In this document: piece after piece, positions 8,530 to 56,301 of the stretch
Layout: each line of letters starts with the position of its first letter
Position numbering within the stretch: position 1 is the stretch's first letter
Assembly: GCA_050123335.1 (NCBI GenBank)
Contig: JASFHH010000005.1
Location: 792 to 64,791 of the forward strand
DNA from: Gammaproteobacteria bacterium
GTDB taxonomy: Bacteria > Pseudomonadota > Gammaproteobacteria > UBA12402
DNA length: 64,000 nt
Direction of reading: 5' to 3'
Translations under genes and position numbers: made by a program
The notes under the pieces: generated by a model
What the model was told of the DNA's origin: nothing
Seen by the model: the letters and a program-made list of their open reading frames with translations, nothing else
Databases searched by the model: none

Positions 8530-9324
8530 TTAACTTATAAGTAATTTTTCTGCTCGTTTAACATCTTCAATTGTGTCAATTCCAGACATGGCTGGTCGAT
8601 CTTGATAATCAACAGGCACTGCTCGAATTGCAAAACCATTTTCTAATAAACGTAATTGTTCTAATCCTTCTAGTTTTTCGTAATGAGTTGGTTTTAAAGT
8701 CACGTATTTTTGCAGCATCTCATAACGATAACCATAAATACCGATATGGCGATAAATTGGCGATAGATTAGATTCTTGTCTAAATTTTTCTTCTTTGCGG
8801 ATTGCCGGAATAATATTTTTGGAAAACCATAGTGTGTTATTATTTTTATCTAAAATGACTGTAGTACCGCTAAATGGAGTTTGTTTTTTGTGTTCACGTA
8901 ATTTATCTAATTCTTTCCAGCTTAATTGTGTAACTGGTGTGATGACTTTTACGTTTTTATCCTGAGTTGCGGTTTCAATTAATTTAGTAATAAAGTCTGG
9001 TGGAGTAAATGGTGTATCGCCTTGCAAATTTAAGATGAATTCAGGTTTATAGTTTAACTGTTCAACTGCTTTCCATGCCCGATCGGTCCCGGTAGGGCAG
9101 CTGACAGGTGTCATTACAAAATTAGCGCCAATTTTTTTAGCATGATCGGCGATACGTTTATCATCAGTAGCAATTAATATTTTTGCATCAGCAATATTTT
9201 TAATTGCATCAATTGCTATTTCATAAACGCGTTGCAGCATAGTTTTACCAGCAATTTTAATTAATGGTTTGCCGGGTAATCTAGTGGACGCATATCGCGC
9301 TGGAATTATAATTGTGGTTTTCAT
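8530..9324 (-). CDS. kdsB: 3-deoxy-manno-octulosonate cytidylyltransferase (CMP-KDO synthetase)
   Basis: MKTTIIIPARYASTRLPGKPL N-terminus, typical for KdsB. Start trimmed to the M at 9324; the upstream extension runs through a REP element. Confidence 0.9.
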   Translation of the reverse strand: MKTTIIIPARYASTRLPGKPLIKIAGKTMLQRVYEIAIDAIKNIADAKILIATDDKRIADHAKKIGANFVMTPVSCPTGTDRAWKAVEQLNYKPEFILNLQGDTPFTPPDFITKLIETATQDKNVKVITPVTQLSWKELDKLREHKKQTPFSGTTVILDKNNNTLWFSKNIIPAIRKEEKFRQESNLSPIYRHIGIYGYRYEMLQKYVTLKPTHYEKLEGLEQLRLLENGFAIRAVPVDYQDRPAMSGIDTIEDVKRAEKLLIS

Positions 9325-9330
9325 GTCATT

Positions 9331-9358
9331 GTCATCCCGCGGCTTGACCGCGGGATCC
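9331..9358. repeat. REP-like hairpin (same family)
   Basis: gtcatcccgcggcttgaccgcgggatcc. Confidence 0.6.
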
Positions 9359-9364
9359 ATGTTG

Positions 9365-10081
9365 TTATAAATGTTTTTTAATTTCTTCGGCAATTAATTC
9401 TTTAATTAAATCTAAATTATTCCTTTCGGATTTTTTCGGACCAAGTCCGATTGATGCGCGCTTCTCTAAAAGTTTCTTTAGATTTTCTGGAGCAAAAGTT
9501 TTTGGTGTTCCCATTTGTTGCGCATAAAATTGTATTTTAGCTACATGTTCAACTAATTCAAGCCGCAAATAAGCTTGTTCAACGCTATCGCCAATAGCTA
9601 ACACACCATTTCCCGGCATGATCAATACATCTGCTTGATTAAGTGCTTCAGTAATTATGCTATCATTTTCTGGTGCGCCTGGCATCGCAAAAGGAGTGAC
9701 TGGTATAATATCACCGATGGAAACTATAGCTTCAGGTAAACATGGAGTTAGTGGCTTGCCAACTAATCCATGCGCTGTGGCAAAAGGAGGATGAGAGTGT
9801 ACCACAGCTTTTGCTTCGGTGCGTGCATTGTAAGCTGCTAAATGTAATTTAATTTCAGAGAACGGTTTGCCAATTCCCTCAATTTTTTTGCCGTCCATAT
9901 CTAAAGTGATAATCATATCAGCAACAATGTTACCTTTGCTAACCGCAGTTGGAGTTGCTAGCAATACATCATCAAACTTTGCGCTAATGTTGCCGTCGTG
10001 ATTTGCACCAAAACCTTTTTCGTCGAGTTTTTGTGAATATTTTACGATTTCATTGGTTATGTAGGTTTTTCTATCGCCCAT
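9365..10081 (-). CDS. Class II aldolase/adducin-family protein (FucA/AraD-like), last gene of the BMC operon
   Basis: Metal-binding His context HSHPPFATA, an ANHDGNIS-type N-terminal region, and ~238 aa as typical for L-fuculose-/ribulose-phosphate aldolase or epimerase. Confidence 0.75.
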   Translation of the reverse strand: MGDRKTYITNEIVKYSQKLDEKGFGANHDGNISAKFDDVLLATPTAVSKGNIVADMIITLDMDGKKIEGIGKPFSEIKLHLAAYNARTEAKAVVHSHPPFATAHGLVGKPLTPCLPEAIVSIGDIIPVTPFAMPGAPENDSIITEALNQADVLIMPGNGVLAIGDSVEQAYLRLELVEHVAKIQFYAQQMGTPKTFAPENLKKLLEKRASIGLGPKKSERNNLDLIKELIAEEIKKHL

Positions 10082-10086
10082 TATTT

Positions 10087-10740
10087 TTATCCAAGTTGTT
10101 TGCTTGTGCCACTTGCTTGCATTTTATTTAATTGTTCCAAAATCGAACTTGCGGCTTCCGCTGCAGCATCAATTTCCGCTTCTGGTCCGCTCATGGTTAA
10201 ACGTCCCGATGCACCGAATGGTTTAATTTGAATTAATTTAACTCGCGCAGCTTTTAATGCCTCGTTACATGCAATGGTTAAATAAGCTGCGGGAGTTGTT
10301 TCCATAATCAAAACAGATTCGCCAGCTAAAACCATATTGCCGCGCGCAGTTCCGGTAAACATAATTGCATGATCTTGCTCAACGCTTCTGATAATTTTAT
10401 TAGTCAAGATTTTAACTTCAGCGCGATCATTTTCGTTTAATCCTGTTTCACGAAGTACTGCTTTGCCTGCTTCTTTTACTTCACCTTGGTCAGCGTGTTG
10501 TACTTGCATTAAACCGAATTGCCTTTCAGTTACGACAGAACCTAAGCGCACAGCAGTATTTTTTAGGGCCATATCAATCATGCTGTGAATTTCCATCGCC
10601 GGTGCGATTTCCAGCATTAATGCAGCATCATACTCTGCCGGATCGTAAACCTTATTATCTTTAGCAATAAATTGTGCTAGTTGCGGTTGTAAACTATCAA
10701 TAAAAATTAAAGTTCTTAGTTCAAAATTACTTTTTGTCAT
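10087..10740 (-). CDS. BMC shell protein, tandem-domain BMC-T of EutL/PduB type
   Basis: 217 aa. Segments align with E. coli EutL (…AYLTIACNEALKAARVKLIQIKP… vs …[31 protein letters not shown]…). Located inside the BMC operon. Confidence 0.6.
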   Translation of the reverse strand: MTKSNFELRTLIFIDSLQPQLAQFIAKDNKVYDPAEYDAALMLEIAPAMEIHSMIDMALKNTAVRLGSVVTERQFGLMQVQHADQGEVKEAGKAVLRETGLNENDRAEVKILTNKIIRSVEQDHAIMFTGTARGNMVLAGESVLIMETTPAAYLTIACNEALKAARVKLIQIKPFGASGRLTMSGPEAEIDAAAEAASSILEQLNKMQASGTSKQLG

Positions 10741-10752
10741 GTTGCTCTCCTG

Positions 10753-11655
10753 TTAGTACTTTCCACTTTTGGCTTTTGTGCCGGTTACAATTGCAATACT
10801 AGCTGATGCGCCGATGCGATCAGCGCCTGCTTCAATCATTTTTTTTGCATCCTCTGTGCTGCGAATTCCTCCGGAAGCTTTTACTTCCATGTCACTTCCT
10901 ACAATTTTGCGCATTAATGCAATATCTTCCACAGTTGCACCGCCGGAACCAAAGCCAGTAGAAGTTTTTACAAATGCAGCGCCGGCAGTTTTGGATAACG
11001 CACACGCAATAACTTTTTCGTCGTGATCCAAATTAGAAGTTTCCAAAATAACTTTTACTTTATGTGGTTTGGATGCTTCAACTACTGCTAGAATATCGCG
11101 ATAAACAGTTACATAATCTTTGGATTTTAGTGCACCAATATTAATTACCATATCAATTTCTTCAGCGCCGTTTTTGATTGCTTCTTTTGCTTCAAACGCT
11201 TTAGATTGCGGGCTGGCTGCTCCTAATGGAAATCCGACAACTGCAATTGGTTTGACACTACTACCTTTTAATTCGCGTGATACAAAAGGGATATTACTTG
11301 AATTTACACAAACAGTAGCAAAATGATATTTTTTTGCTTCATCGCAAACTTTTTTAAGTTGTTCACGGGTTGCATCTGGTTTTAATAAGGTGTGATCAAT
11401 CATGCCGGCAAGTTTTGTGTCAACATTACGATCGATTCCTGGATTGGCGCCGATGCGATCTGCGCCTTCACGCAACATATTATTTATTGCTTCAGGTTTT
11501 TTAATCACACATAAGCCGCAATGTTCGCATGAGTCTGGTGATAAACCGCATGCACCAGCAGCAACTAAATCTGGTTGAGTTATTCCAGCTTGTTGTAATT
11601 TTTGAGTCACGCGGCGTGCAATAACTTCAACAAGTTCTTCGATTTTATCGGTCAT
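10753..11655 (-). CDS. deoC: Deoxyribose-phosphate aldolase (DERA) with ~80-aa N-terminal extension (putative encapsulation peptide + Cys cluster)
   Basis: The DeoC core starts near LAGMIDHTLLKPDAT, with catalytic Lys context FVKTSTGF. The extension MTDKIEELVEVIARRVTQKLQQ is predicted to be an amphipathic helix, followed by CGLSPDSCEHCGLCV. Confidence 0.85.
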   Translation of the reverse strand: MTDKIEELVEVIARRVTQKLQQAGITQPDLVAAGACGLSPDSCEHCGLCVIKKPEAINNMLREGADRIGANPGIDRNVDTKLAGMIDHTLLKPDATREQLKKVCDEAKKYHFATVCVNSSNIPFVSRELKGSSVKPIAVVGFPLGAASPQSKAFEAKEAIKNGAEEIDMVINIGALKSKDYVTVYRDILAVVEASKPHKVKVILETSNLDHDEKVIACALSKTAGAAFVKTSTGFGSGGATVEDIALMRKIVGSDMEVKASGGIRSTEDAKKMIEAGADRIGASASIAIVTGTKAKSGKY

Positions 11656-11674
11656 AATTATTCCCTCTTATATA

Positions 11675-11986
11675 TTATCTGGATCCCGGATCAACTGACT
11701 GGGTCCGGGATGACACATGCGCATGTGTCACTTTATCTACTATACCTACAATTACAGAGTGAAATGGATCATCTTTAGTTCCCAGCAATTGTCTGGCTGT
11801 ATTACCTTCGCGTTGAATTAATACAACATCGCCAGGTGCTGCTTGAGCTGTATCACAAGCTAAAAATGAATTACCTAAATCTTTGCCTTGTTCGTCAATT
11901 GGTTGCACGATTAAAACTCGATGTCCTTTGTAACAAGGATGTTTCTCAGTTGCAACTACATTGCCTTTAACTCTGGCTAAGATCAT
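11675..11986 (-). CDS. BMC vertex protein (BMC-P; EutN/PduN/CcmL family)
   Basis: MILARVKGNVVATEKH...GDVVLIQ...VIVGIVD motif pattern. The C-terminal 15-17 codons are read through a REP element plus a palindrome. Confidence 0.8.
   Translation of the reverse strand: MILARVKGNVVATEKHPCYKGHRVLIVQPIDEQGKDLGNSFLACDTAQAAPGDVVLIQREGNTARQLLGTKDDPFHSVIVGIVDKVTHAHVSSRTQSVDPGSR
11681..11730. repeat. REP-like hairpin (inverted orientation) plus adjacent 18-bp palindrome gacacatgcgcatgtgtc
   Basis: ggatcccggatcaactgactgggtccgggatgac. The stem variant GAC/GTC compensates relative to CGG/CCG in the other copies. Confidence 0.55.
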
Positions 11987-12318
11987 TCAAATATTTCCTC
12001 TTTATCTAAAATTCCAACATCTTCTTGATTAACTTGATCTACAATTCCGGTAATCGCAGCATCAACAGGTGTAAATGAATCTGGTAAAGTTAATGCAGCT
12101 TCTCTTGCTGTTATCCAATGTACTAAATCATTTAATCCTGCTTTTACCACTGGATCAACTGCAGCAATTGGTTTGCCTGTTGGTTTTAGATCGTCATTTA
12201 ATGGCTGAATCATTAAAATTTTTATGCCGTTTAAAGCCTCATGTTTTTGTGTTGCAACTACTGTGCCGATTACTTTTGCTAATTGCATTTTATATTCCTG
12301 TCCAATAAATTTCTTCAA
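11983..12318 (-). CDS. BMC vertex protein (BMC-P; EutN/PduN family), second copy
   Basis: MQLAKVIGTVVATQKH...IKILMIQP...ITGIVDQV. A more likely start is the M at 12288, which avoids overlap with the upstream gene. Confidence 0.75.
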   Translation of the reverse strand: MKKFIGQEYKMQLAKVIGTVVATQKHEALNGIKILMIQPLNDDLKPTGKPIAAVDPVVKAGLNDLVHWITAREAALTLPDSFTPVDAAITGIVDQVNQEDVGILDKEEIFE

Positions 12319-12853
12319 TCAAATCCGGATGCGGTGCTGGAATAATTTCACATCCTGCTAATAATCCTTCGGTTTTAATGTGTTTTTTTGCTGCATCAAT
12401 TGAAGCTTCAATGTCAGCTAATTTTCCGGTCATCACAAAATAACCTTTACCACCTAAACCGTTCGCTAATCTAATTTCTACTAATTTTGCTGGTGATGTT
12501 TTAGCGGCTAAATCTGCTCCAACAATGCAGGATGCGATTGAAAAAGTTTCGATAATACCAACGGCATCAAATTTTTTTATTTCAGTTGTTCCGGCAACAG
12601 CGGGAATCACATCCAAATGAATTTGCGGTAAGAATAAATTATTAATTACGCCATCATCGCCAACGTTAATACCTGCTTGCAATGATTCTTCGACATCGGC
12701 AACTTCGCCCGCAAAAATAACCATATATTTACCTGGGCAGATTGGGTTGCTGTTAAGAATTGTAACCGGAGCTTTTTTGGCAATTGCATCAGTTGCAAAC
12801 ATGCCTCGTGCTACTGAGTTGAATTCAATTAGTCCTAGCGATGGTTTTTGCAT
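12290..12853 (-). CDS. BMC shell protein, tandem-domain BMC-T of PduT type
   Basis: 187 aa with two BMC domains (LGLIEFNSVARGMFATDAIAKKAPV... and AVGIIETFSIASCIVGADLAAKTS...). A Cys in the second domain is consistent with the Fe-S-binding PduT type. Confidence 0.8.
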   Translation of the reverse strand: MQKPSLGLIEFNSVARGMFATDAIAKKAPVTILNSNPICPGKYMVIFAGEVADVEESLQAGINVGDDGVINNLFLPQIHLDVIPAVAGTTEIKKFDAVGIIETFSIASCIVGADLAAKTSPAKLVEIRLANGLGGKGYFVMTGKLADIEASIDAAKKHIKTEGLLAGCEIIPAPHPDLIEEIYWTGI

Positions 12854-14183
12854 ATTTAATCTCTATATAATTATCATTTACCTCAGTTATTTTGCCGTCA
12901 ATTGACGCGTGATAAACGGCGCCTAACTTATCTTGCGGCGTAGCCGCTATAATATCACATCTGCGTACCATTTGTCCTAGATTAACTTGGGAAATTGCAG
13001 GTGCTCCAACGTGTTTGTTTAGCGGAATGCGTACCATTTTGATTTGCTGTATTCCTGCAAAAACCGGTTTGCAATTATATTTTTCCAAGTTAAGTTTTTT
13101 CATTACCATTTGAATCGATGGTTTACGATTTTTAAATTGTGAATTGGCTTTAGCCGGTGCATTTTTATGTGGGCTTTTTACTCCACGAGATATTAATTCG
13201 CTTTTATATTCTGCAAAAATTTTGCGAGGTGAAAGATGCATAAAATCACAAGCAATCAATTCACACATGCCGCATTGGCTACATAAAAAAGCAGAAGTAA
13301 TATGCTTTGTTGGTTCAGCACTGTTGTATGCTATTGTGCGCATTGTCATGTGCGGATATAATTCGTGTCCTAATAAATTGCGCGGGCAAAGATCGGTGCA
13401 GCGAAAGCATTGGCAGCATGCAGATTTTGTTTGTTTGATTATTTGTCCCAAAGGTTTTTTTGCTTTACGAATTAATAAGTGATTTTTAGGTAATGCAATT
13501 ACACCACTGGTAGTTTTACCGATACCTTGATTCCAATCATCAACAATTTTTCCCATCATCGGGCCGCCATCAATTAAAACAGCGTCTTTAATTTTTAAGC
13601 CACCTGCTAATTTAATTAAATCGTTGTAAGTTGTGCCAATTGGAACAATTACAACTTTTGGTTCGCGAAGTTCTCCAATTAAAGTTACTGCGCGTTCAGT
13701 TATCGGTTTGCCGTTAACTGCATGTGCAATCTGCATTAAAGTGATTACGTTATTTACGACAATGCCAACGTTTAATGGGATGCCGCCTTCGGGAATTATT
13801 TTTCCGGTTACTTCATACACTAATAAAAATTCATCGCCTGCGGGATAATAATTATCTAACAAATGTAATTTGATCGATCCATCAGATGGTAAATGTTTTT
13901 TGATTGCATCAATTGCGTCGTGATAATGCGATTTTAATGCAATAATTCCTTGCTTAGCAGAAGTTGCTTGCATTGCATATTTCATGCCTTCGATTAATAA
14001 TTCTGGTTTTTGTACCATCATGGTGCGATCGCTGGCAAGAAGTGGTTCGCATTCAGAACCATTAGCAATGATGGTATCAACTTTTGTTTGTAATTTTACA
14101 TGTGTAGGAAATCCGCCGCCACCTGCGCCAATTATTCCGGCGTTTTTTACAGCTTGCACAATTTGTTCCGCTGTTTTTGGCAT
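12825..14183 (-). CDS. PduS/RnfC-family NADH-dependent Fe-S flavoprotein
   Basis: N-terminal GAGGGGFPTHVK (RnfC/PduS nucleotide-binding) motif. Two Cys clusters, CCQCFRCTDLCP and CSQCGMCELIACD, indicate 4Fe-4S ferredoxin-type sites. Confidence 0.8.
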   Translation of the reverse strand: MPKTAEQIVQAVKNAGIIGAGGGGFPTHVKLQTKVDTIIANGSECEPLLASDRTMMVQKPELLIEGMKYAMQATSAKQGIIALKSHYHDAIDAIKKHLPSDGSIKLHLLDNYYPAGDEFLLVYEVTGKIIPEGGIPLNVGIVVNNVITLMQIAHAVNGKPITERAVTLIGELREPKVVIVPIGTTYNDLIKLAGGLKIKDAVLIDGGPMMGKIVDDWNQGIGKTTSGVIALPKNHLLIRKAKKPLGQIIKQTKSACCQCFRCTDLCPRNLLGHELYPHMTMRTIAYNSAEPTKHITSAFLCSQCGMCELIACDFMHLSPRKIFAEYKSELISRGVKSPHKNAPAKANSQFKNRKPSIQMVMKKLNLEKYNCKPVFAGIQQIKMVRIPLNKHVGAPAISQVNLGQMVRRCDIIAATPQDKLGAVYHASIDGKITEVNDNYIEIKYAKTIARTN

Positions 14184-15616
14184 CAGACAATCCTAAAATA
14201 TCCGCTTAATACACATCTTCTAATTCTGGTAAAGTGACGTGCGGTAGTAACACCTTCGCCGGTAGGTGAAGCAATGGTAAAAGATGCTGGACCTTCACCT
14301 TCAATACCGAGTCCTGCAAGTGCCGGACCATTTTTTACAAAAATGGAGGTATTCATTTTTACCGCCATTTTATGCAAGTGTTCAACATTTTTTGAATGCA
14401 TAACCGAAGTATGAAAACATCCATCTTCTAATTGATAAGCAATTTCAATTGCTTCATCAACATCGTTTGCACGAATAAATGGTAATACCGGCATTAATAA
14501 TTCTAATTTTGCAAATGGATGATTAGCATCAGTTTCAACAAAAGCTAAACGTTTAGATGGATCGACTTGCAATCCAATTTGTTGCAAAATTAATTGAATG
14601 TCTTTGCCAACCCATTTTTTATTTGGGTGGCCATCTTGCACAATAATTTTTTCTAATTGTTTAGCTTGGTAATTATTAAGTTCAACTGCGCCATGTTTAA
14701 TTAATGCTTTTTTTAATTCGTCTGCGCAAGCGCGAGTTGCAATAATATTTTTTTCAATTAAACAAATAATATTATTGTCAGTGGATGCACTTATCACAAT
14801 ATCGCGGCCGGCTTTATCAATATCTGCAGTTTCATCAACTACAACTGGAGGATTGCCTGGTCCTGCAGCAATAACTTTTTTGCCGGATTGCATTGCGGCA
14901 TCTACTACAGCAGGGCCGCCGGTAACTACCAGCAAATTAATTTTTGGGTGTTTCATTAAAGTTTGTGCTGATTGAATTGTTGGGTTGATCACGGTTGTGA
15001 TTAAGTTTGGCGGACCACCAGCAGAAATAATTGCTTTATTAATTAAGCTGATAGTTAAGACAGATATTTTTTTAGCGCTTGGATGTGGATTAAAAGCAAC
15101 AGCGTTGCCTCCAGCAATCATAGCAATGGTATTGCTGATAATTGTTTCTGATGGATTAGTGCAGGGCGTGATAGAACCGATTAATCCATAAGGTGCATGT
15201 TCTAAAATGGTTAAGCCGTTGTCGCCGGTAAAAGTTATTGGTTCTAAATCTTCTATGCCCGGAGTGTTGTTAATTGCCAATTCATTCTTTTTTAATTTAT
15301 CTTCGTATCTACCAAGTCCAGTATCGGAAAGTGCTAATCGTGCAATTTGTTCAATGTTTTCGGTACAGATTTCACGAATAGCAGTAATGATTTTTTTACG
15401 TTGCTCTATCGGAATGGTTTTATATTCGAGGAAAGCTTTTTCTGCAGCAAGAATTGCTTCTTCGATATCAGTAAAACACCCCGGGGTGTCATTAGTTTGT
15501 GTGGTGATATTTGGTTTTTGTGGTGCGCTTTTTATTTTAGTTTCCGCAGCAGGAATTACCAATTTATTAACTACACGATCGACAATCGAACTTATTTGTT
15601 GTTCGCTAATAGACAT
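14183..15616 (-). CDS. CoA-acylating aldehyde dehydrogenase (EutE/PduP family) with N-terminal encapsulation peptide
   Basis: ALDH fold with catalytic Cys context (SITPCTNPSE region). The N-terminal amphipathic helix QQISSIVDRVVNKLV followed by a Pro/Thr/Gln linker is typical of PduP/EutE targeting peptides. Confidence 0.85.
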   Translation of the reverse strand: MSISEQQISSIVDRVVNKLVIPAAETKIKSAPQKPNITTQTNDTPGCFTDIEEAILAAEKAFLEYKTIPIEQRKKIITAIREICTENIEQIARLALSDTGLGRYEDKLKKNELAINNTPGIEDLEPITFTGDNGLTILEHAPYGLIGSITPCTNPSETIISNTIAMIAGGNAVAFNPHPSAKKISVLTISLINKAIISAGGPPNLITTVINPTIQSAQTLMKHPKINLLVVTGGPAVVDAAMQSGKKVIAAGPGNPPVVVDETADIDKAGRDIVISASTDNNIICLIEKNIIATRACADELKKALIKHGAVELNNYQAKQLEKIIVQDGHPNKKWVGKDIQLILQQIGLQVDPSKRLAFVETDANHPFAKLELLMPVLPFIRANDVDEAIEIAYQLEDGCFHTSVMHSKNVEHLHKMAVKMNTSIFVKNGPALAGLGIEGEGPASFTIASPTGEGVTTARHFTRIRRCVLSGYFRIV

Positions 15617-15633
15617 AGCAGAGTCCTTCTACT

Positions 15634-15661
15634 GTCATCCCGCGGTTTAACCGCGGGATCC
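15634..15661. repeat. REP-like hairpin (same family)
   Basis: gtcatcccgcggtttaaccgcgggatcc. Confidence 0.6.
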
Positions 15662-15667
15662 AGTGTT

Positions 15668-15955
15668 CTATTTAGAATATTTAGTTTCGCCGTTGATTTC
15701 TAGTTCATCAACAATTGCCATAATGACAGCGTCCACTGGTTTACCGGAGGTCGAGATTGTTTGACGTGCAGAACTTCCTGCTGCGACCAAAACAATTTCA
15801 CCAACTCCAGCGCCGACGGAATCAGCTGCGATTACAAACGAATTCATCGGTTTGCCATCAATATCAACATGTTTAACGATTTGAAGTTTTAATCCTTCGA
15901 GCTTTTCATCTTTTTGGCTGGAAACCACGGTGCCGATAATTTTACCTAATTGCAT
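15668..15955 (-). CDS. BMC vertex protein (BMC-P; EutN/PduN family), third copy
   Basis: MQLGKIIGTVVSSQKDEKL...GEIVLVAAGSSAR...VIMAIVDEL. Confidence 0.8.
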   Translation of the reverse strand: MQLGKIIGTVVSSQKDEKLEGLKLQIVKHVDIDGKPMNSFVIAADSVGAGVGEIVLVAAGSSARQTISTSGKPVDAVIMAIVDELEINGETKYSK

Positions 15956-15976
15956 TACTTAAGCTCCTTAGTTCTT

Positions 15977-16058
15977 GTCATCCCGAACCCAGCTTGTTGA
16001 TTCGGGATCCAGGCGGTTTTTCTGGATCCCGGATAATCGCTGCGCGATTTCCGGGATA
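15977..16058. repeat. Two adjacent REP-like hairpins (AAC/GTT and GGA/TCC stem variants)
   Basis: gtcatcccgaacccagcttgttgattcgggatcc and ggatcccggataatcgctgcgcgatttccgggata. Confidence 0.55.
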
Positions 16059-16146
16059 AATTCCATATAGCATAATTGATATTTGTTTTTATCATAAGGC
16101 AGCTTCTCATTTCTCCAAGACAATATTTTTTCATTTACAATGTCAT

Positions 16147-16440
16147 TTATTTGGATTTAGATTTTTCGCGACCTAAAGGTAATGCAGAATCGATATTTGC
16201 ATGTGGTCTTGGGATGACATGTACCGATACTAATTCGCCAACTTGTTGTGCAGCACGGGCGCCGGCATCGGTTGCAGCTTTAACTGCGGCAACATCACCA
16301 CGCACTACAGCAGTTACATAACCACCACCGATTTTTTCGTAGCTGACTAATTCAACTTTAGCGGCTTTTACCATGGCGTCACTTGCTTCTACCATTGCAA
16401 CAAAACCTTTGGTTTCGATCATTCCTAATGCATCAGACAT
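16147..16440 (-). CDS. BMC hexameric shell protein (BMC-H; PduA/EutM family), first gene of the operon
   Basis: [56 protein letters not shown] is a canonical BMC-H sequence. Confidence 0.9.
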
Positions 16441-16601: not shown

Positions 16602-16904
16602 TTATATTTTGTTGTTTCCGATAATAGGTTTTTTCTCTTCAACATTTTCATTTTTTTTAGATTCAATTGTAGCATTTTTAGAAAGTTCACGAATAATTTT
16701 AGCATGACATATGCCAGTGCCTACATTTATAGTAAGGCCTGTAAAAAATAAAACAAATCCCCCTATTGCTCGAAGTGCGGCAAGAGCATCTTTGGAGGTC
16801 ATGCCATCTACTGATAAAACTGGGCCTCCAACCATAAGAGTAATTCCTGCCATATATAAAAAACAAGGACCTATAGAACGTTGAAGACATCCAAAGAAAC
16901 TCAT
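16602..16904 (-). CDS. Small membrane protein (100 aa), hypothetical
   Basis: Three predicted TM segments. No family recognised. Confidence 0.35.
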   Translation of the reverse strand: MSFFGCLQRSIGPCFLYMAGITLMVGGPVLSVDGMTSKDALAALRAIGGFVLFFTGLTINVGTGICHAKIIRELSKNATIESKKNENVEEKKPIIGNNKI

Positions 16905-18986: not shown

Positions 18987-20102
18987 TTAATGCCATCTAT
19001 ATCTAAATTTTAAATTATTGAATTTATTATATCCAATATAATTCATATGCTGAAGCCGTCCCACAAGAATGCCTGGGGCAATATTCAATTTTTTGGCAAA
19101 TTCAATAATCAGGGCGGTACTCAGTTTATCATTTTTCTTTAACCATTCATTTAAGCGTGATGAAGGGATTAAAGTTTCTGCTGCATATTTATCTGCTTCT
19201 AATTCTTCGGAAGATTTATTTACAGTCTTGTTATTTATTTCAACAAAAAATTCTTTTTTGCTGTGTTTAATTATGTGACCTATTTCATGAAAGATTGTGA
19301 ACCATAAAATGTCGGCTGTTTTACCTCTTAAGCTTAATTGAACTAATGCTTTTTCAGGATTCAACCAGCAAGAAGCTCCATAAATAGGAACTTTTGGAAA
19401 AGGCTTTATAAAGACAATGGCGATTCCACAATCAGCACAAATATTCTTTAATTTAGGAACAAATATTTCTGGATCTTTTTCTTTAGTAAGCGCGCGCATT
19501 TGATCGAGTGATGAAATTAATTTTTCTTTATCAAATAGTTTGCATTGAATTTTTTCTCCTTCAAGCTCTCCCTTTCTTAACCAAACGCTAATAGCACCAA
19601 TATCTGATTTTAGATTCATGGCTTTCCTAAATGCAAGCCGTCGCCGTGTCCATCCTTGTTCCCATTGCTCTGGTGTGGCTACTCCAAAAAAATTTAATAT
19701 GGCAATCATTTGCTCCGCAACAGTATCGCCACATTTAAGAAGCCAACCTCTTTTTTTCATTTCTTTGATTGGAAACTGCTTAAGCCAATCTTTTTCTGCA
19801 GTTAAACGTTCTAACTCTTTTTGCTGGGCAAGGTAAGCACGGTAATTGGCTTCTCTTTGATTCCAAAATGCAGCAGGAGTACCAAGTGCTCTTTCCAACT
19901 GAATAGCTGTCTCTGAAGTAATTGCGGCTTTACCTTTGATAATTTCGTTGATAGTTTTTAATGGGCGACCAATACGTTCTGCAAGCGCTACTTGAGTCAT
20001 ACCTCGTTCTTCAAGAATTTCAAGCAATGTTGCTCCAGGGGCAGAAACGATGTCTGGTTGGTAAAAAAGTTTACTTTTTTCAATCATGGGTATCCTCCAC
20101 AT
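18987..20102 (-). CDS. HigA-like XRE-family HTH antitoxin fused to ImmA/IrrE-family zinc metallopeptidase (COG2856)
   Basis: N-terminal HTH (LLEILEERGMTQVALAERIG…) and a C-terminal HEXXH motif (FHEIGHIIKH). Likely start at MIEKSKLF. Confidence 0.7.
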   Translation of the reverse strand: MWRIPMIEKSKLFYQPDIVSAPGATLLEILEERGMTQVALAERIGRPLKTINEIIKGKAAITSETAIQLERALGTPAAFWNQREANYRAYLAQQKELERLTAEKDWLKQFPIKEMKKRGWLLKCGDTVAEQMIAILNFFGVATPEQWEQGWTRRRLAFRKAMNLKSDIGAISVWLRKGELEGEKIQCKLFDKEKLISSLDQMRALTKEKDPEIFVPKLKNICADCGIAIVFIKPFPKVPIYGASCWLNPEKALVQLSLRGKTADILWFTIFHEIGHIIKHSKKEFFVEINNKTVNKSSEELEADKYAAETLIPSSRLNEWLKKNDKLSTALIIEFAKKLNIAPGILVGRLQHMNYIGYNKFNNLKFRYRWH

Positions 20103-20675: not shown

Positions 20676-21582
20676 AATCCGGTTTTTCCAACGATTTTTT
20701 CTTTTCTGTGGCAAGCCGACGTTCAACTTTTTTAACATCTTCAGCAGCAGAGCGTTCTTCAGGACAAATGCCTCTTTCTAATAATGTTTTGCGAACAGCT
20801 GCGTTGTTAGTAATATGTTCTTGCGAGACGGCAGCTTCTGTTTTCATGTTATGTTCTTTTGCATTAAAAATAGTAATTTCTGTAGCAAAATCTTTAGCCT
20901 TTAAAATGATTGTGGGAGCAAAATCAGCTAAAGGGCGATTTTTTGCTGAAGGTCATTCATGACCTTCAGCCCTTACGGGGCGCACTTCGTGCGACAAAAA
21001 TCTGCAGTCCTGCAGATTTTTTGGAACATTCCATTGATCTTTCATTTCTTGAGTTGTTTTTCTAAAAAGTGAAAAATTACCTTTATCTCGAATAAGAGCA
21101 AAATTTTTATTTCCCCCGGTTTGTTCATAAATAGTTTTTGATAATTCTTTTTCGGTAGTAGCTAATTTTTTACGTGCGGAAACACGTTCAATCTCTAAGA
21201 GCTTTTGTTCAATTAATTCTGTTCGGCGGGTTTGTATGGCGAAGTAAGTTTGCGCAAAGGCAATTTCTGATTTCTTTGGATCGCCATTTTGTGCAATTAG
21301 ATAGCAAGCGTAGCGGGTAAGCATGATGTCGTTGACTTCGCGTTGGCTACCAGAACCCAGTTTGACCATTTTCCTGACGTCAGGAAAATGGTCTACGATA
21401 TTGTGTCCAGAAGTTGTACATGATGCTTTTGCTTTGACTATAACATTAAGAAAATTCTCCCATTTTTCATAACCAAGCAATTGTTGCAATTCGCGTGCTA
21501 GCCAAAATTCCACGTCATCTTCAGTTTTTTGAGCATGTTCTTCAAAGTTGTTTGTTAACGCATAAATAAAATCAGTTTTCAT
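20676..21582 (-). pseudogene. dinD: dinD-like gene disrupted by a ~180-bp palindrome-rich insertion (20880..21060)
   Basis: The N-terminal 175 aa match DinD (…WLARELQQLLGYEKWENFLNVIVKAKASCTTSGHNIVDHFPDVRKMVKLGSGSQREVNDIMLTRYACYLIAQNGDPKKSEIAFAQTYFAIQTRR…). The frame then runs into gaaggtcattcatgaccttc / cgcacttcgtgcg / tctgcagtcctgcaga palindromes, and the C-terminal coding segment resumes out of frame. Confidence 0.6.
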
Positions 21583-21685
21583 TGTTAAACCTCTATTTTT
21601 AATTTTTAAAATTATCAAACGGTAGATTATCGCAAATAAAAAAATTAAAAACTAGCGTAAAAACTACGGGGTTTTGGGAATTATT

Positions 21686-21708: not shown

Positions 21709-22469
21709 GTTGTAATTTGTTGATTTTGGCGGTACAGCTATTGATACTACTAAAATGAGAAGTCAGATAGTCTGAACTGATCGGGAATTCCGAATAGTTG
21801 AAATCTAATCCCGTCGAATTCGACGGGATTAGAATACCGCGTGGGGACAATTTGTTCCTTGGTAGCTTGATCAATTGTAGACAAATTGTCGACGGTTTGC
21901 ACTGATTAAATTTAAGCCAAACGTTTTGCCGACGTCGTCAAAATGGTATAAATTATTGAGTAGCAGTTATAAAGAAATTCTTTACAACTGATCTCATTCA
22001 TCTGAAGTTGCGAAACAACCTGTTTCGCAATTACGAAAAAATTGTACAGTTCAAATTTAAACCCATCGAATTCGATGGGTTTAAAATCAGTATTATTAAG
22101 TTGGTTCCAAAATACCCAAAAACTTAATCGTATTGCGATTTTGCAACTTGCTAAACTCAGAAAACAGAAGGTGTTTTAAAAAACCGAAAATACTTATTTA
22201 TTGAAAGTGATTATTAATTATTAATAAATTTAGTGAAATAAAGGATTGTATTTTCTAAATATTGAGGTAGAATAATCGGCCACTGGGAGATTTGTTCAAA
22301 ATCTCACCTGCCAAGAATAATAAAATCATAAAATAAGGTTCAGGCATTTCTCTTGAATTGCTGTCAGATATGGATATTCCTTTTGAACATGGAGCGCATT
22401 GGTCGCTTATTTTCTTAATAGAGTTAATTAGTAATCTAAAAAATTTAATAGTTTTAGGAGAAGAAATAT

Positions 22470-23229: not shown

Positions 23230-24057
23230 ATGAGCAAATGGGATCAAATTGTTACTAGTGATGTTAATGATAAAACAGAATTAAAAAATTTAGAAAATGA
23301 TTATGCAAGAGGAGAGTTTTTGCAGAATATGTTAATTAGTACGGCTACAGGCGGTCAATCTCAGAGAGATGATCAATACAAAAAGTTAAGAAGATATTTC
23401 ATGGAAAGTGAACATGCCAATTTATTGCCTTTTTGGGTTAAGAGTAATAGAGATCTGGGAAGTTTCTGGCCATTTATACAAGAACAATTTTCAACTTATC
23501 GAGAAAGACGCGCTTTTATAAGAACAGAATTTGATCGTTTATTGAGTGCACTAGAAGCAAATTGTACTTGTCTGATTGTTGAGTCTGTTAATTTAACAAT
23601 GCGGCAGATAACACATGCAAATTTAAATTCATATTGGAATAAGGCTATAAAAAGAGTAGGGACTGATCCAGAAGGAGCTATTACAATAGCTAAAACATTA
23701 TTAGAAGGGAGTTGTAAGGAGATACTAGATCGTCAATGTGTAGAATATGATGATGACAAAATAACATTACCAAAATTATATAAAATAACAGCCAAATCAT
23801 TACAACTACATTCTACGCAACATATTGAAAAAATTTTTAAGAGTATCTTAGGTGGTTGTTCTGCGATAGTTGGAGGACTTGGCAATGTTAGAAATGAGCT
23901 TGGTGATGCACATCATCGTAAAATAAAACCATTACGTAGACATGCTGAATTAGCTGTTAATATGGCGGGGTCGATGGCAAAATTTTTATTTCAAACTTTA
24001 GAAGACAGAATGGAAATTAAAAAAGGAAAAAAACAAAGCAACGATAACATTAATTAA
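23230..24057 (+). CDS. HEPN/Abi_C-domain protein (AbiJ-like abortive-infection family)
   Basis: C-terminal Rx6H HEPN-type motif within GLGNVRNELGDAHHRK. Overall resembles Abi_C (abortive infection C-terminus) proteins. Confidence 0.55.
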   Translation: MSKWDQIVTSDVNDKTELKNLENDYARGEFLQNMLISTATGGQSQRDDQYKKLRRYFMESEHANLLPFWVKSNRDLGSFWPFIQEQFSTYRERRAFIRTEFDRLLSALEANCTCLIVESVNLTMRQITHANLNSYWNKAIKRVGTDPEGAITIAKTLLEGSCKEILDRQCVEYDDDKITLPKLYKITAKSLQLHSTQHIEKIFKSILGGCSAIVGGLGNVRNELGDAHHRKIKPLRRHAELAVNMAGSMAKFLFQTLEDRMEIKKGKKQSNDNIN

Positions 24058-25392: not shown

Positions 25393-26309
25393 ATGATTAA
25401 AAATGTTCGCAAAAAAAACATCATTACTTAGCAAGAGTATACCTAAATGGTTTTTGTGATCAGAATAATATGGTTTGGTCATATCATAAAGATGATCTTT
25501 CAAAAATACATTGTCAAACACCAGACAATACAGCAATTGAAAAAAATCTTTATGCTGTGGATGGAATTGATGTTAATGTGTTTGAAGACTTTTTATCTGA
25601 CCAAATAGAAAGTCCAGCAGTAAATGCATTAAAGGAATTACAAAAAGGTCAACTGCCATCAAATAATGATAGACTTGTTTTAGCAAAATTTTTTGGCTTC
25701 ATGTTAGTACGAACTCCGTCATATAAGGCTTCTAATGAACAGCCATTTGAGCGTGAATCTAATATGTTACTAAAATTATACGTACAACATAAAGAGTGTT
25801 TTCAAAATTGGTGTAATAAATATGAAGGAATCAATAATCAACCTATAGCTAAAGATATTGAGCGACTAAGGCAAGAAATCTTAAATGGAAAATACATACT
25901 AAAACCACATCATAATTTTAGTCTTAATACTATAGGAAAATTGGGTTTAAGCATTGATTCTTATTTATTAAATATGAAATGGATAATGATAAAAGCACCC
26001 AAAGGTTATTTCTTTTTAACTTCTGACAATCCTGTTATTATCACAAATCCAGAGTGCAATGGATTTTATTCAACAGGATTAGGACAAGAAAACACTAGAG
26101 TTTTTATCCCAATTTCAAAGGAAATTGGTCTTCTTATGGTTAATTTAGATATTGATGGTTTTGACAATCAATCAATTGATAATAATAGTGAGATTGTAGG
26201 GCATATGAATAAAGCAATCATTCTGTTTGCATCCAAATTTATATTTAGTCATAAAAAAAACGACGACATTACACAATTAATAAAAAAAGTAACTGAAAAT
26301 AAAAATTGA
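25393..26309 (+). pseudogene. DUF4238-family protein, frameshifted in an A8 homopolymer near the 5' end
   Basis: ATG at 25393 (MIKNVRKK…) hits a stop after 12 codons. One extra or missing A in aaaaaaaa (25411-25418) restores …KKHHYLARVYLNGF…, the DUF4238 N-terminal HHY-x-x-x-YL motif. The downstream body contains the DUF4238 hallmark TSDNPV. Confidence 0.6.
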
Positions 26310-26942: not shown

Positions 26943-28289
26943 TTGATGACTGCGAAAATACATCAACCAGCGTGTGAATTGACTGAAGGCTGTTGGGTTG
27001 ATTTTAGAGAAATGGTGCAACAAGTTGAACCGGAATTGTTTGACATCATTGAGAAAATAAACCCAAATAAAGAGCACAAATTAATTAAAGCCAGATATTT
27101 ATATGGCGAGCAAATTACTGATCTTGGTACCATTTGTGTTCCAGATAAATTTGGCCGTTTAGTACGTTTAGATAACGCTAATGTCTCCAGTGAGTTGCAA
27201 GATCAATTGGGCTATTGTCCTACGCCGCTAGTTTTGCAATTAAAAAATGCTGGTGAGGTTTTTGTTGAAACAGAAGATCGCATCGCGCCATTAAATATTT
27301 TTATGCCGGGGGATATGTACGGGTTATATGAAATTTTAGTTCCGCTTTCTGGTTGTCCAGCCGTACCTTGTTGGAGTATTACATCCGGAGGCAGATCGGT
27401 ATTTTTAGCATCTAAAATTACCGATGCAATCGGTCACAAAAAATTGCGTAAGGAATTTGGTGTATCACCAGTTCCACCGAAAAACATCAAAGATCAATGG
27501 GCAACTATGAAAACTATTGCTAACCGAGGCAGAAAAGATAATCCTTGGTCATCAGAAATATTAATTTTTACCAAAGAATGGTTTACCGAAAAAGATGACG
27601 ATATTAATTGGATGAGATTTCAAAACTACTTGATGAAAAAAGCGTGGTGGCAATCTCGAAGTACTCGCGCACAAATTGAATATAGTATTATGTGGGAATC
27701 TTTTGCTAAAGCAGTGTGTGCTAGAAATTTAAAACCTAGTTCTTATATTGTTGATACAGTAAAACATTTAATGCTATTAACTGCTGGCACAACTCCCGGA
27801 TTTAAAGCGATTGATACCAGTGAAAACATCATGCCGTCAAAGATTGTAGAAAAAGCATATACGGACATTTACGGTTTAAAAGATTATGCGGCCATTATTA
27901 TGCATCCTCACGTAACTAAATTAAATAGTCATGATGAGCAAGTTTATTACTCGATGGCCTATCCTACTTTAATTTCCGGCACGCCGTCTATTCGTAAAAA
28001 CACAAACACCATGACTGAAATTCGTGACGTGCAGACATTGATGAAAATGCTTGAAAAAATATTATCTTCTTATGAAGATCGTGTTCATAATTCAATGAAA
28101 AACGTTAAGTTTGAATATTTTCATAGTGATGAAGATCGTTTTGGGGAAATCCTAAATAGCCATAGCATAACTAAAACTGATGCGGCAATCTTAAATATTT
28201 TAAACGAACGTTTTCCTGGTAAAAAATTTCCTTCATACGGTTCATTTTTCAGAGGGTGCATTAGAATAAGCAGGAAGAATGTTGGTTAA
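26943..28289 (+). CDS. Hypothetical protein (448 aa), convergent partner of the rSAM-Nudix gene
   Basis: Long ORF with no recognisable motifs. Its 3' end overlaps the 3' end of the opposite-strand rSAM-Nudix gene by 48 nt. Confidence 0.5.
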   Translation: MMTAKIHQPACELTEGCWVDFREMVQQVEPELFDIIEKINPNKEHKLIKARYLYGEQITDLGTICVPDKFGRLVRLDNANVSSELQDQLGYCPTPLVLQLKNAGEVFVETEDRIAPLNIFMPGDMYGLYEILVPLSGCPAVPCWSITSGGRSVFLASKITDAIGHKKLRKEFGVSPVPPKNIKDQWATMKTIANRGRKDNPWSSEILIFTKEWFTEKDDDINWMRFQNYLMKKAWWQSRSTRAQIEYSIMWESFAKAVCARNLKPSSYIVDTVKHLMLLTAGTTPGFKAIDTSENIMPSKIVEKAYTDIYGLKDYAAIIMHPHVTKLNSHDEQVYYSMAYPTLISGTPSIRKNTNTMTEIRDVQTLMKMLEKILSSYEDRVHNSMKNVKFEYFHSDEDRFGEILNSHSITKTDAAILNILNERFPGKKFPSYGSFFRGCIRISRKNVG

Positions 28290-32060: not shown

Positions 32061-32417
32061 TGGTGGAGGCGGCGGGAATCGAACCCGCGTCCGCGAACTC
32101 TCCGCCATCGGTTCTACATGCGTAGCTAATCATTAAATTTCATTATTTGCTGCCCGATTAGCAGGGATCACAAATAACTAGCCTAAGTTAAATTTAGCGG
32201 TATTGCCTTAGGCGCACTTTACCGCGAGCTTATGAAATATGACCATCAGATTCAAGCGCATAAGCACACTTGGGTGATGGGCTGTGCCTGTTTAAGCGGC
32301 GACAGCGTAAAGTTCGTCGTTTGCGACTACTTTGTTGCAGCATGATTTACGAGGTTAAGCTACGTCCTCGGCATGCCCCTTTGGTTTTGCAATCCACGTC
32401 GAAGCCGGGTCGCCCCC
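32061..32417 (-). ncRNA. ssrA: tmRNA (ssrA)
   Basis: The 5' end GGGGGCGACCCGGCTTCGACGTGGATTGC… pairs with the 3' end …GCGGGTTCGATTCCCGCCGCCTCCACCA. Internal tag reading frame GCAAACGACGAACTTTACGCTGTCGCCGCTTAA gives ANDELYAVAA*. Confidence 0.85.
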
Positions 32418-54935: not shown

Positions 54936-56172
54936 TTTGTAGGGGACAATTTTGTATGAATAAAGAAATAACTCGCTGATTTTACGGGAAAATGTATAAT
55001 CTCATTTTTGAATATTTGAAGTTTAAAAGGAGGTTATATGAATCCCACCAGCGAGTTAGTGAAGATTTTAAGTAAAAATCTCGATTGGCACAAGTCTAGA
55101 TTGAATTGTTTTGTAAAAATGTTGCTATCGTTGTTCGTTGTAAGAACAGTTAATCTGCGAGAATTAGCGGTAGCATTCGATAGTAATGCGCAACTTGGTT
55201 CGCGATATAAAAGGATAAAAAGGTTTTTTGCGCAATTCAAAATTAAGCAAGAAGTTTTAGCCAAATTAATTTTCGAATTATTTTTTTTTAAAATCAGATA
55301 AAATTTATTTAACAGTGGATCGCACAAACTGGTGGTGGGGTAAATCCAGCATTAATATTTTAACTTTAGGAATTGCGCATGAAGGAATTTCGATTCCATT
55401 ATTTTGGAATTTACTTAAGGGCACCAGTTCGACAGGCGATGATCAGTTTGAAATTGTAAAAAGATTTGTAAAAGTGTTTGGTAAAGATTGTATTGCTGGC
55501 GTTTTGGCAGACCGAGAATTTGCGAATAAATATTTTTTTAGGAATTTGGTTAAAGCCAAAATACCCTTTTATATAAGGGTTAAAGAAGGATCGAAAGCAA
55601 ATATATTTTATGAAAAAACATTTAAGGTTAAGAAATTATTTAACCAGCTAAAACAGAAATCTCAGATGTCATATATTCAGCCAGTTACAATTCATGGACA
55701 AAAATTATTTGTAGCGGCAGGAAGATCTGAGTCAGGTGAATTATTACTTGTGGCAACGAATCAATACAAAGCAAAAAATGCGGTATCAATATATTTACGC
55801 AGATGGGAAATTGAGGTTTTATTTCAAAGTTTAAAAAGCAGAGGATTTAATTTTGAAGATACACATATTACCAAGCGTGAAAGAATTGAGACTTTGATGT
55901 CCTTACTTGTTGTTGGTTTTAGTTGGGCGCATAAAATTGGTGAATGGCGTGATACTAAAAAACCTGTTGTTTTTAATAAATATCGTGATGGCAGAAGACC
56001 GCAATATAGTTTCTTTCGTTATGGATTAGATTTTATTCGTGATGTGATTTTACATGTAGCCAGACTTAAAAAACAGTTTCGGCGGTGTTTGAAGTTGCTT
56101 TTTTTTCCTCCGAAACCACTCAAAACTTCAATCCAGGAAACAATATCATGATCTTTTGTTCCCTACAGAGAC
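54936..56172 (+). mobile_element. IS4-family insertion sequence (~1.24 kb) with imperfect terminal inverted repeats
   Basis: IRL ctttgtaggggacaattttg (54936-54955) vs the reverse complement of IRR gtctctgtagggaacaaaag (56153-56172). Encodes a DDE transposase. Confidence 0.7.
55038..56151 (+). pseudogene. IS4-family DDE transposase split by a +1 frameshift at a T10 run
   Basis: The two ORFs 55038..55301 and 55315..56151 are in different frames, joined across tttttttttt (55283-55292). The C-terminal YLRRWEIEVLFQSLKSRGFNFE matches the IS4 Y-R-E-K signature. Confidence 0.7.
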
Positions 56173-56301
56173 TTTTTTAAGTTTTTTTGTTTTTGTTAAT
56201 AAAACCTTAAGAATTAGTTGGTATTATCAACGCAAGAAACCAATAGCAGTTTGTTTATCATAATTGCTATTTTAAAAACTATAATTAACAGGAACTTTAA
56301 A

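Follow-up and report, generated by a model that had tools for sequence, protein, structure and literature searches.

Sugar-phosphate-utilising (SPU) loci are among the most widespread types of bacterial microcompartment (BMC), and only one of their enzyme pairs has been studied, the deoxyribose-5-phosphate aldolase (DERA) and ribose-5-phosphate isomerase of the Chloroflexi subtype SPU6 (PMC11585597). The activity and N-terminal extension of SPU DERAs were described in that work, the activity being demonstrated for the SPU6 orthologue, and loss of the extension through mis-annotation is described there too. The subtype of concern here, SPU5, was defined from eight loci in the BMC catalogue (PMC8217296, Supplementary Data 2), with hosts among the Proteobacteria and one Chloroflexi. 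In these loci an aldehyde dehydrogenase (AldDH) is always present and pfam02502 (RpiB) never, no phosphotransacylase (PTAC) or alcohol dehydrogenase is listed, pfam01791 is found in four of them and a pfam00596 aldolase in five of them, and encapsulation peptides (EPs) are N-terminal on the AldDH and C-terminal on the aldolase. Their shells are described as having one BMC-H, a BMC-P triplet, a PduS-associated BMC-T(s) with a cysteine pore and, in four loci (about half), a CsoS1D-clade BMC-T(dp), with no satellite loci. Here we describe a ten-gene BMC operon at positions 9365-16440 of a 64-kb stretch of contig JASFHH010000005.1, from a gammaproteobacterial assembly (GCA_050123335.1). This whole stretch is called the window below.

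Two further bodies of work bear on this operon. PduS homologues are metabolosome NADH dehydrogenases (MNdh), which pass electrons from luminal NADH through flavin mononucleotide (FMN) and two 4Fe-4S clusters to a pore cluster in a BMC-T(SE) shell protein, whose pore motif CP(G/S)K holds a 4Fe-4S cluster (PMC11626177). According to the same study, 97% of MNdh loci have an adjoining BMC-T(SE) gene and 361 loci combine the module with the lack of an alcohol dehydrogenase, and a Clostridium pair served to characterise the module's NADH oxidation and Fe-S clusters in vitro. In addition, the BMC-P triplet is characteristic of all SPU loci and of all loci of the HO type, named after Haliangium ochraceum (PMC8217296, Supplementary Data 2; PMC11585597), and the BMC-T(dp) proteins of SPU loci cluster with carboxysomal ones in the catalogue (PMC8217296).

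The operon comprises 10 open reading frames (ORFs), each above its Pfam gathering threshold in a hidden Markov model (HMM) scan. In order of transcription these are:

16147..16440, minus strand: BMC-H hexamer shell protein, 97 aa, the operon's first gene (PF00936, 105.6 bits)
15668..15955, minus strand: BMC-P1 pentamer vertex protein, 95 aa (PF03319, 102.1 bits)
14183..15616, minus strand: CoA-acylating AldDH, 477 aa (PF00171; NCBIfam PRK15398, 647 bits, cut-off 403)
12825..14183, minus strand: MNdh, a PduS homologue, 452 aa (PF01512, PF10531, Fer4_17, PF13375)
12290..12853, minus strand: BMC-T(SE), PduT-type tandem-domain trimer, 187 aa (PF00936 twice, 125 bits)
11983..12288, minus strand: BMC-P2 pentamer protein, 101 aa (PF03319, 82.6 bits)
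11675..11986, minus strand: BMC-P3 pentamer protein, 103 aa (PF03319, 86.4 bits)
10753..11655, minus strand: DERA, 300 aa (TIGR00126, 277 bits, cut-off 117)
10087..10740, minus strand: BMC-T(dp), CsoS1D/CcmP-type double-stacking gated trimer, 217 aa (CcmP model NF053796, 180 bits)
9365..10081, minus strand: class II (FucA-family) aldolase-like protein, 238 aa (PF00596, 132.9 bits)

Within 7 kb, three PF00936 and three PF03319 proteins that score above the gathering threshold are therefore clustered with enzymes, and no other shell genes were found in the 64-kb window beyond the operon. Distances between genes range from -29 to 51 nt, the sole exception being a 191-nt spacer 3' of BMC-H, and these gap sizes are compatible with one operon. 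An initial annotation, made from the letters of the window, had listed ten co-directional genes with this inventory, apart from the type of one BMC-T. The list was otherwise borne out, all ten genes lying on the minus strand and above curated HMM thresholds, and the shell and DERA calls held when the PF00936, PF03319 and DeoC models were run.

As judged from its genes, the locus is a member of the SPU5 type and fits the subtype in every testable feature. It combines the BMC-P triplet and single BMC-H with a PduS-adjoining BMC-T(s) that has a cysteine pore, a CsoS1D-clade BMC-T(dp) and a pfam00596 aldolase whose C-terminus bears an EP. The SPU features described in PMC11585597 are found as well, namely a DeoC-type DERA (pfam01791) with the Asp/Lys/Lys catalytic set and an N-terminal extension. 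The general SPU marker RpiB (pfam02502) is lacking from the operon and from the scanned window ORFs, which include almost every ORF of 120 aa or more across the 64 kb, and this absence is itself a hallmark of SPU5. The scanned ORFs likewise contained no PduL, Pta, alcohol dehydrogenase, nucleoside phosphorylase or phosphopentomutase. The lack of PduL and alcohol dehydrogenase genes in the locus, which the initial annotation had presented as unusual, was thus confirmed and extends to the scanned ORFs, but it is normal for SPU5 (PMC8217296).

The link to the catalogue runs through the BMC-T(dp), whose full-length identity is 82% to A3C55_04370, a protein labelled 'bmcType=SPU5 (main)' in the BMC-T(dp) tree of the catalogue (PMC8217296) and encoded by Gammaproteobacteria bacterium RIFCSPHIGHO2_02_FULL_42_13 (GCA_001801785.1). 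This genome is represented among the related loci compared here, each denoted by an L number, by L087 and by L088, the better assembly. Its locus has the same gene set and order as the window, lacks RpiB, PTAC and alcohol dehydrogenase, and carries an N-terminal EP on the AldDH and a C-terminal one on the aldolase. Differences from this reference were seen in the surroundings and the gaps: in the window kdsB, hicAB and a phosphoglycerate mutase (PGAM)-family gene lie between the operon and the triose-phosphate isomerase gene tpiA, flanking cdd, nucleoside-phosphorylase, tdk and deoB genes are lacking, and palindromes resembling repetitive extragenic palindromic (REP) elements fill intergenic gaps, one of them lengthening the BMC-P3 ORF. 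Contrary to the novelty suggested by the initial annotation, the locus essentially falls cleanly into a BMC type already catalogued in related uncultured Gammaproteobacteria. It opens no new category, and the new details lie in a four-Cys cluster of the DERA, a His-to-Asn exchange in the aldolase and the REP-like palindromes.

The window holds a complete, compact and intact SPU5 operon and, together with its relatives, reveals a strongly conserved ten-gene order. Indeed, this order is identical in L081, L082, L088 and L089/L090, and L087 agrees for the genes called there; L084 keeps it up to the contig end with one amidase gene inserted, while nine of the ten genes are present in L001 and eight in L085/86. 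In a tblastn matrix every operon protein showed 55-86% identity to the related loci. In a scan of species-representative genomes the best full-length identity among the matches listed was 63% (L001), with core-only matches of up to 72%. Among metagenome cluster representatives, more than 120 matched the DERA at 68% identity or above and more than 120 matched the BMC-T(dp) at 77% or above, so SPU5 appears to be much commoner in metagenomes than the catalogue suggests.

The shell proteins agree with this assignment. BMC-H, whose ATG is preceded by an AAGGAGA ribosome-binding site 8 nt upstream, reaches 138.7 bits against the EutM equivalog NF012018 (cut-off 133) and is 77-86% identical to its positional orthologues in L001 and L081-L086. 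The initial annotation had considered three vertex paralogues in one small locus unusual, a view that does not hold since the triplet is standard for SPU and HO loci. The three window paralogues share 34-41% identity with each other and 55-79% with their positional orthologues (72-75% for BMC-P1, 70-74% for BMC-P2 and 73-79% for BMC-P3, whose orthologues are 86-94 aa long). They are therefore nearer to their positional counterparts than to one another, which indicates that the triplet is old and typical. The ORF listed for BMC-P2 opens at a TTG (12318) upstream of the ATG at 12288, and the PF03319 match begins at residue 11 of that ORF, so M11 is probably the true start. Of the tandem-domain proteins, the PduT-type BMC-T was called correctly at the outset: its pore motif C39-P-G-K (residues 39-42) aligns with that of the solved PduT homologue 3nwg (155 bits). 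The second had been called EutL-type, along with correct calls of BMC-H and of three BMC-P. It is instead a BMC-T(dp), given that CcmP is its top NCBIfam match, that its nearest solved homologues are 7dhq, HO-5816 (173 bits), CcmP and CsoS1D, with the gating pair E72-R73 aligned, and that its orthologues carry the PF27545 CsoS1D_N domain.

The signature enzyme of the locus is the DERA. The solved DERA 5dbu aligns over residues 81-296 only (251 bits), and the preceding extension of about 80 aa, kept in 28 homologues, consists of an amphipathic helix (residues 2-22, also predicted by AlphaFold2), a cluster of Cys36, Cys43, Cys46 and Cys49, and a GADRIGA element. The helix has the top hydrophobic moment of the protein and is followed by a poorly conserved linker, as in an EP. 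Residues D168, K230 and K259, which correspond by motif (EIDMV, FVKTSTG, EVKASGG) to D102, K167 and K201 of the Escherichia coli enzyme, are invariant in the 28 homologues. In the annotation of the NCBI MAG whose proteins match those of the window exactly (MGD9107871-885), the protein starts at Met85, has 216 aa and lacks the conserved extension used for encapsulation; the same truncation was found in the RIFCSPHIGHO2_02_FULL_42_13 record (217 aa) and a lesser one in GCA_023135155.1 (278 aa).

The AldDH would receive the aldehyde released by the DERA. Its best solved homologue is the BMC AldDH 5jfl (437 bits), with whose active-site Cys its Cys285 aligns. The call of an EP-tagged CoA-acylating enzyme made in the initial annotation was upheld: besides the PRK15398 match, the helical hydrophobic moment along the protein peaks at residues 6-20 (0.64, with the 95th percentile at 0.47), which lie within an N-terminal EP at about residues 5-20 that is followed by a poorly conserved linker of about 25 aa. 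In the tblastn matrix the enzyme is 73-76% identical to those of L081-L086, 63% to that of L001, 46-53% to SPU3-like ones and 27-32% to those of SPU6.

Cofactor recycling, which the initial annotation had assumed to be encoded elsewhere or done differently, appears to be largely explained by an NAD+-regeneration module within the locus itself. The MNdh has its domains in circularly permuted order, with PF01512 at residues 12-153, PF10531 at 166-211, a 4Fe-4S dicluster domain at 255-312 and a C-terminal PF13375 RnfC_N barrel at 381-440. Its Fe-S motifs are CxxCxxCxxxC at residue 256 and CxxCxxCxxxxC at 301, its best solved homologue is RnfC 7zc6, and its gene overlaps the downstream BMC-T(SE) gene by 29 nt. 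This four-domain MNdh, with its C-terminal barrel, two 4Fe-4S motifs and adjoining tandem BMC-T with a CPGK pore, in a locus that has an AldDH and lacks an alcohol dehydrogenase, corresponds to the module described in PMC11626177, with the difference that for SPU5 the module is read from genes alone. With such electron export, acetyl-CoA as product and no alcohol as by-product, the locus would be a sensible choice for engineering a minimal metabolosome that is self-sufficient in NAD+.

Taken together, these data suggest, with a probability of roughly 0.8, that the locus encodes an SPU5 metabolosome catabolising 2-deoxyribose-5-phosphate derived from deoxynucleosides or DNA, in agreement with the core of the initial annotation, which had proposed an SPU-like compartment with DERA as the aldehyde source. 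Nucleoside phosphorylase, cytidine deaminase and phosphopentomutase, whose genes flank the operons of relatives and are not in the window, would supply deoxyribose-5-phosphate in the cytosol, and this would enter through the BMC-H pores or the gated BMC-T(dp) pore, as hypothesised in published work. The encapsulated DERA, to judge from homology, its catalytic residues and the active SPU6 orthologue, would cleave it, giving glyceraldehyde-3-phosphate plus acetaldehyde. The toxic acetaldehyde would be trapped inside the shell and converted by the encapsulated AldDH, together with CoA and NAD+, to acetyl-CoA and NADH, as its homology and Cys285 indicate. By analogy with the Clostridium pair, MNdh would then regenerate NAD+ within the shell, passing electrons from FMN through two 4Fe-4S clusters and the 4Fe-4S cluster of the BMC-T(SE) CPGK pore to a cytosolic acceptor. 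Because there is no PTAC, acetyl-CoA and CoA would probably be exchanged through the BMC-T(dp) pore, again following a published hypothesis, and SPU loci lacking PTAC typically have a BMC-T(dp) (PMC11585597). Glyceraldehyde-3-phosphate would leave the shell and be equilibrated with dihydroxyacetone phosphate (DHAP) by the linked cytosolic triose-phosphate isomerase (TIM). The EP-tagged aldolase would be co-encapsulated, most likely for a second cleavage yielding DHAP and an aldehyde, or for a triose-phosphate condensation.

Several points weigh against this assignment. SPU5 is known from bioinformatics alone, so shell assembly, substrate and product are all deduced, and how CoA is recycled is no more than a hypothesis. 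In the window the operon has no nucleoside-catabolic gene as a neighbour, nor a transporter or regulator. The mechanism leaves the four cysteines of the DERA extension unaccounted for, and the aldolase, which has lost the third His of its zinc site, scores below every equivalog cut-off.

The aldolase also provides the main argument for an unlikely alternative, in which the principal substrate would be another sugar phosphate, cleaved by this enzyme to DHAP and lactaldehyde, glycolaldehyde or acetaldehyde, as in PVM-type compartments or the 5-deoxyribose shunt, with the DERA having a secondary role. The protein indeed carries a conserved C-terminal EP (residues ~221-238), an amphipathic helix placed after a variable linker, the top hydrophobic-moment window of the protein falling in this region. 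In FucA numbering it retains E73, H92 and H94, its best solved homologues are FucA structures (about 1e-19), and its weak best NCBIfam matches, none of which reaches an equivalog cut-off, include ribulose-1-phosphate and fuculose-1-phosphate aldolases. Moreover, a gene for TIM, which handles DHAP, is conserved directly after the aldolase gene in relatives. However, the three-His zinc site is incomplete: the third ligand, H155 of FucA, is replaced by Asn158 (window 9608-9610). The same exchange was found in all seven BMC-embedded loci checked by tblastn (L081, L082, L087-L090 and L016), with the His kept in three other homologues. In addition, Y113 of FucA is replaced by Glu in five of five aligned SPU5 orthologues. 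This altered metal site makes both a DHAP-yielding cleavage and a triose-phosphate condensation uncertain for the enzyme. Furthermore, L085/86 and L001 keep the DERA and lack the aldolase, and the genes flanking the operons of relatives are deoxynucleoside genes, all of which favours deoxyribose-5-phosphate as the main substrate.

Still less probable is a BMC of the HO type of Haliangium ochraceum and other Myxococcota, of unknown function, with the DERA as a peripheral addition. In this case the resemblance lies in the AldDH, that of SPU5 being placed closest to the HO type in the catalogue (PMC8217296), and in the BMC-P triplet, the BMC-T(dp), which gives 173 bits with HO-5816, and the pfam00596 aldolase present in some HO loci; in addition, Myxococcales genomes carry solitary EP-bearing DERA genes (L002-L009). 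Nevertheless, HO main loci are described as lacking DERA, whereas the window DERA lies inside the operon; PduS and PduT are reported from HO genomes only as rare satellites (three genomes), whereas the window operon contains an MNdh; and the pore cysteine, which the window protein has in its CPGK motif, is missing from the HO BMC-T(s). The 82%-identical BMC-T(dp) orthologue is catalogued as SPU5, not as HO. An ethanolamine- or propanediol-type or carboxysome-like compartment, which might be read from the NCBI names EutM, EutE and EutN and from the best scores of BMC-P and BMC-T(dp) on CcmL and CcmP, has practically no likelihood and is refuted for the window, since no EutBC, PduCDE, glycyl-radical enzyme, RuBisCO or carbonic anhydrase is found among the scanned ORFs, the scores stay below the cut-offs (64-103 against 125 for CcmL, 180 against 340 for CcmP), and SPU BMC-T(dp) proteins are known to cluster with carboxysomal ones.

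Within the SPU family, the locus shares some features with SPU6 and differs in others. Both have the signature DERA with an N-terminal helix and a Cys-containing extension, the BMC-P triplet, a BMC-H and a BMC-T(dp). However, SPU6 has an RpiB-like partner and no PduS, its EP is C-terminal on an AldDH of another branch, and the Cys spacing in its DERA is Cx3Cx4Cx3C, compared with Cx6CxxCxxC in the window.

This Cys cluster lies between the EP helix and the catalytic barrel, at residues 36-49 (Cx6CxxCGxC, window 11509-11550). Among the 28 SPU5-type homologues C43, C46 and C49 are invariant and C36 is at least 90% conserved, and four-Cys clusters of other spacing were found at the same site in SPU6 and SPU3, being absent from SPU4-like and some other DERAs. 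The main text of PMC11585597 describes the extension as 'two beta strands' of low confidence and leaves the cluster unmentioned; in our AlphaFold2 model the extension likewise has a per-residue confidence (pLDDT) of 33-58. Profile searches of the extension against PDB and Pfam gave sub-threshold matches only, to the eS26 zinc ribbon (E=0.07) and to Fer4 (E=0.09-0.13). A link between the cluster and MNdh was considered and rejected, given that SPU6 DERAs have the cluster and, according to the literature, no PduS, and that the SPU4-like L036, with PduS/PduT, lacks it; since the two do not co-vary, a role in electron relay is unlikely. The simplest guess is a structural metal site. Separately, DERA residues 54-74 (window 11434-11496), which contain GADRIGAN, resemble the protein's own C-terminal strand-helix AGADRIGASAS (about residues 276-286), with a sub-threshold profile match of E=0.02 to the C-termini of solved DERAs, and may represent a partial internal duplication.

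The surroundings of the operon provide further information on substrate supply. The following genes lie 3' of it in the window:

8530-9324, minus strand: kdsB
7724-8511, plus strand: hicA/hicB pair
6875-7528, minus strand: PGAM-family gene
6032..6784, minus strand: triose-phosphate isomerase tpiA, 250 aa, no terminal extension (TIGR00419, 212.6 bits, cut-off 130.6)

The initial annotation had placed tpiA and the PGAM gene just downstream of the operon as possible handlers of the triose phosphate. Both genes are present, but they are set apart from the operon by kdsB and hicA/hicB, and only the tpiA link is kept in relatives. The TIM gene is found directly 3' of the aldolase gene in L081, L089 and L090 and after one inserted gene in L082, and the window TIM is 64-67% identical to those of L081 and L082. 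As TIM adjoins the aldolase in relatives, the tpiA link is ancestral, with kdsB, hicAB and the PGAM gene now separating the two in the window, and the lack of a terminal extension suggests that the window TIM is probably cytosolic. The PGAM gene was rejected as a member of the system, having no counterpart in any related locus, and is probably unrelated to the compartment. Upstream, a 100-aa membrane ORF (16602-16904) was also left outside the system, as it has no family match and the upstream neighbours differ in every relative.

Genes of deoxynucleoside catabolism flank the operon in several relatives: cytidine deaminase and a PNP_UDP_1 nucleoside phosphorylase in L081, L082 and L084, thymidine kinase in L081 and L085-87, and in L087 a 405-aa PF01676 metalloenzyme that is probably a phosphopentomutase, having the size and family of one. 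The L081 operon is also flanked by a PHO4/PhoU phosphate transporter pair. These deo-type neighbours support the assignment of deoxynucleosides or scavenged DNA as the source of the substrate. Recent horizontal import of the operon was considered and rejected: GC content at third codon positions is 0.15-0.33 per operon gene and 0.22-0.42 in housekeeping genes of the window, and this overlap argues for a resident operon.

A further feature of the window is a set of GC-rich REP-like palindromes of the form ATCCCG...CGGGAT (pattern ATCCSG..CSGGAT), of which there are seven in the window against 0.03 expected (6809-6839, 9334-9356, 11683-11711, 15637-15659, 15980-16008, 16026-16057 and 21808-21829). 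All but one are located within or next to the operon and tpiA. Two of the regions concerned are:

15956..16146, minus strand: 191-nt spacer after BMC-H, holding palindromes 16026-16057 and 15980-16008 and a third hairpin
9334..9356, no strand assigned: perfect REP-like palindrome with a 9-bp stem (7 G-C pairs), located in the 40 nt that separate the aldolase stop from the start of kdsB

The predicted RNA fold of the spacer has an energy of -54.5 kcal/mol (z = -4.0 relative to shuffled sequences), and its palindromes may act in mRNA stability or attenuation. A further palindrome (15637-15659) sits between BMC-P1 and AldDH, and that at 11683-11711, inside the 3' end of BMC-P3, encodes the non-conserved C-terminal tail of this protein. 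The palindrome at 9334-9356, a putative terminator or mRNA stabiliser, and that at 6809-6839, located between the PGAM and tpiA genes, stand on either side of the kdsB-hicAB-PGAM segment by which the operon and tpiA are divided. Overall, the palindromes could tune transcript stability and shell-protein stoichiometry. Consensus scans for promoters and terminators returned no more sites than in shuffled sequence and were therefore not used as evidence. In L087/L088 a similar palindrome separates the BMC-T(dp) gene from the aldolase gene.

With regard to the host, the window YchF is 100% identical to the protein of the matching NCBI MAG, 82-96% identical to unnamed metagenome proteins and only 70-74% to those of named organisms, being equally distant from Legionella (70-73%), unclassified Thiotrichales, sulfur oxidisers and metagenome-assembled genomes (MAGs) from Rifle groundwater. 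A neighbour-joining tree of this single gene joins the window first to uncultured sequences and next to the gammaproteobacterial MAGs from Rifle groundwater, and places it outside Legionella. The host is an uncultured gammaproteobacterium, and the membership of Legionellales suggested by the initial annotation is not shown. No Dot/Icm genes were found among the scanned window ORFs, a literature search combining Legionella or Legionellales with microcompartments returned no relevant paper, and the supplements of the catalogue (PMC8217296) contain no Legionellales or Coxiellales names.

Two proteins are nevertheless hints of a host-associated lifestyle, with which they fit and which neither proves. 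One is a 1361-aa ankyrin-repeat protein (56218-60303) encoded beside a DDE transposase gene (55315-56151) in the window; the other, at 12596-14005 of L082, on a 1.8-Mb contig, contains a eukaryote-type RhoGEF (DH) domain (31.1 bits, gathering 27.6) and is inserted between the SPU5 aldolase and TIM. A broader scenario, in which a possibly host-associated lineage would live on host deoxynucleosides by means of its SPU5 organelle, with the Cys-site DERA and the Asn-variant aldolase performing chemistry beyond the SPU scheme, is speculative and rather doubtful. If true, a four-Cys metal or Fe-S site could mean a redox-switched DERA, or the aldolase variant could have a new activity in the aldolase family. 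Near the ankyrin gene there are also many ORFs of 400-590 aa with no family match, an effector-like pattern.

The remainder of the window holds chromosomal genes usual for a Gram-negative bacterium (lptD, surA, smpB beside tmRNA, ychF, thiL and malic enzyme), together with toxin-antitoxin and abortive-infection genes and many ORFs with no assigned family. The tmRNA gene (32061-32417) adjoins smpB, and a thiamine pyrophosphate (TPP) riboswitch (62585-62682) is located upstream of thiM-thiD, an operon for thiamine salvage (60363-62593). An unusual 578-aa fusion of a radical SAM protein with a C-terminal NUDIX domain (28242-29978) is encoded in a region rich in defence and toxin-antitoxin genes, among them Abi_C (23230-24057), DUF4238 (25470-26309), a HigA-like gene (18987-20102) and dinD (20953-21618).

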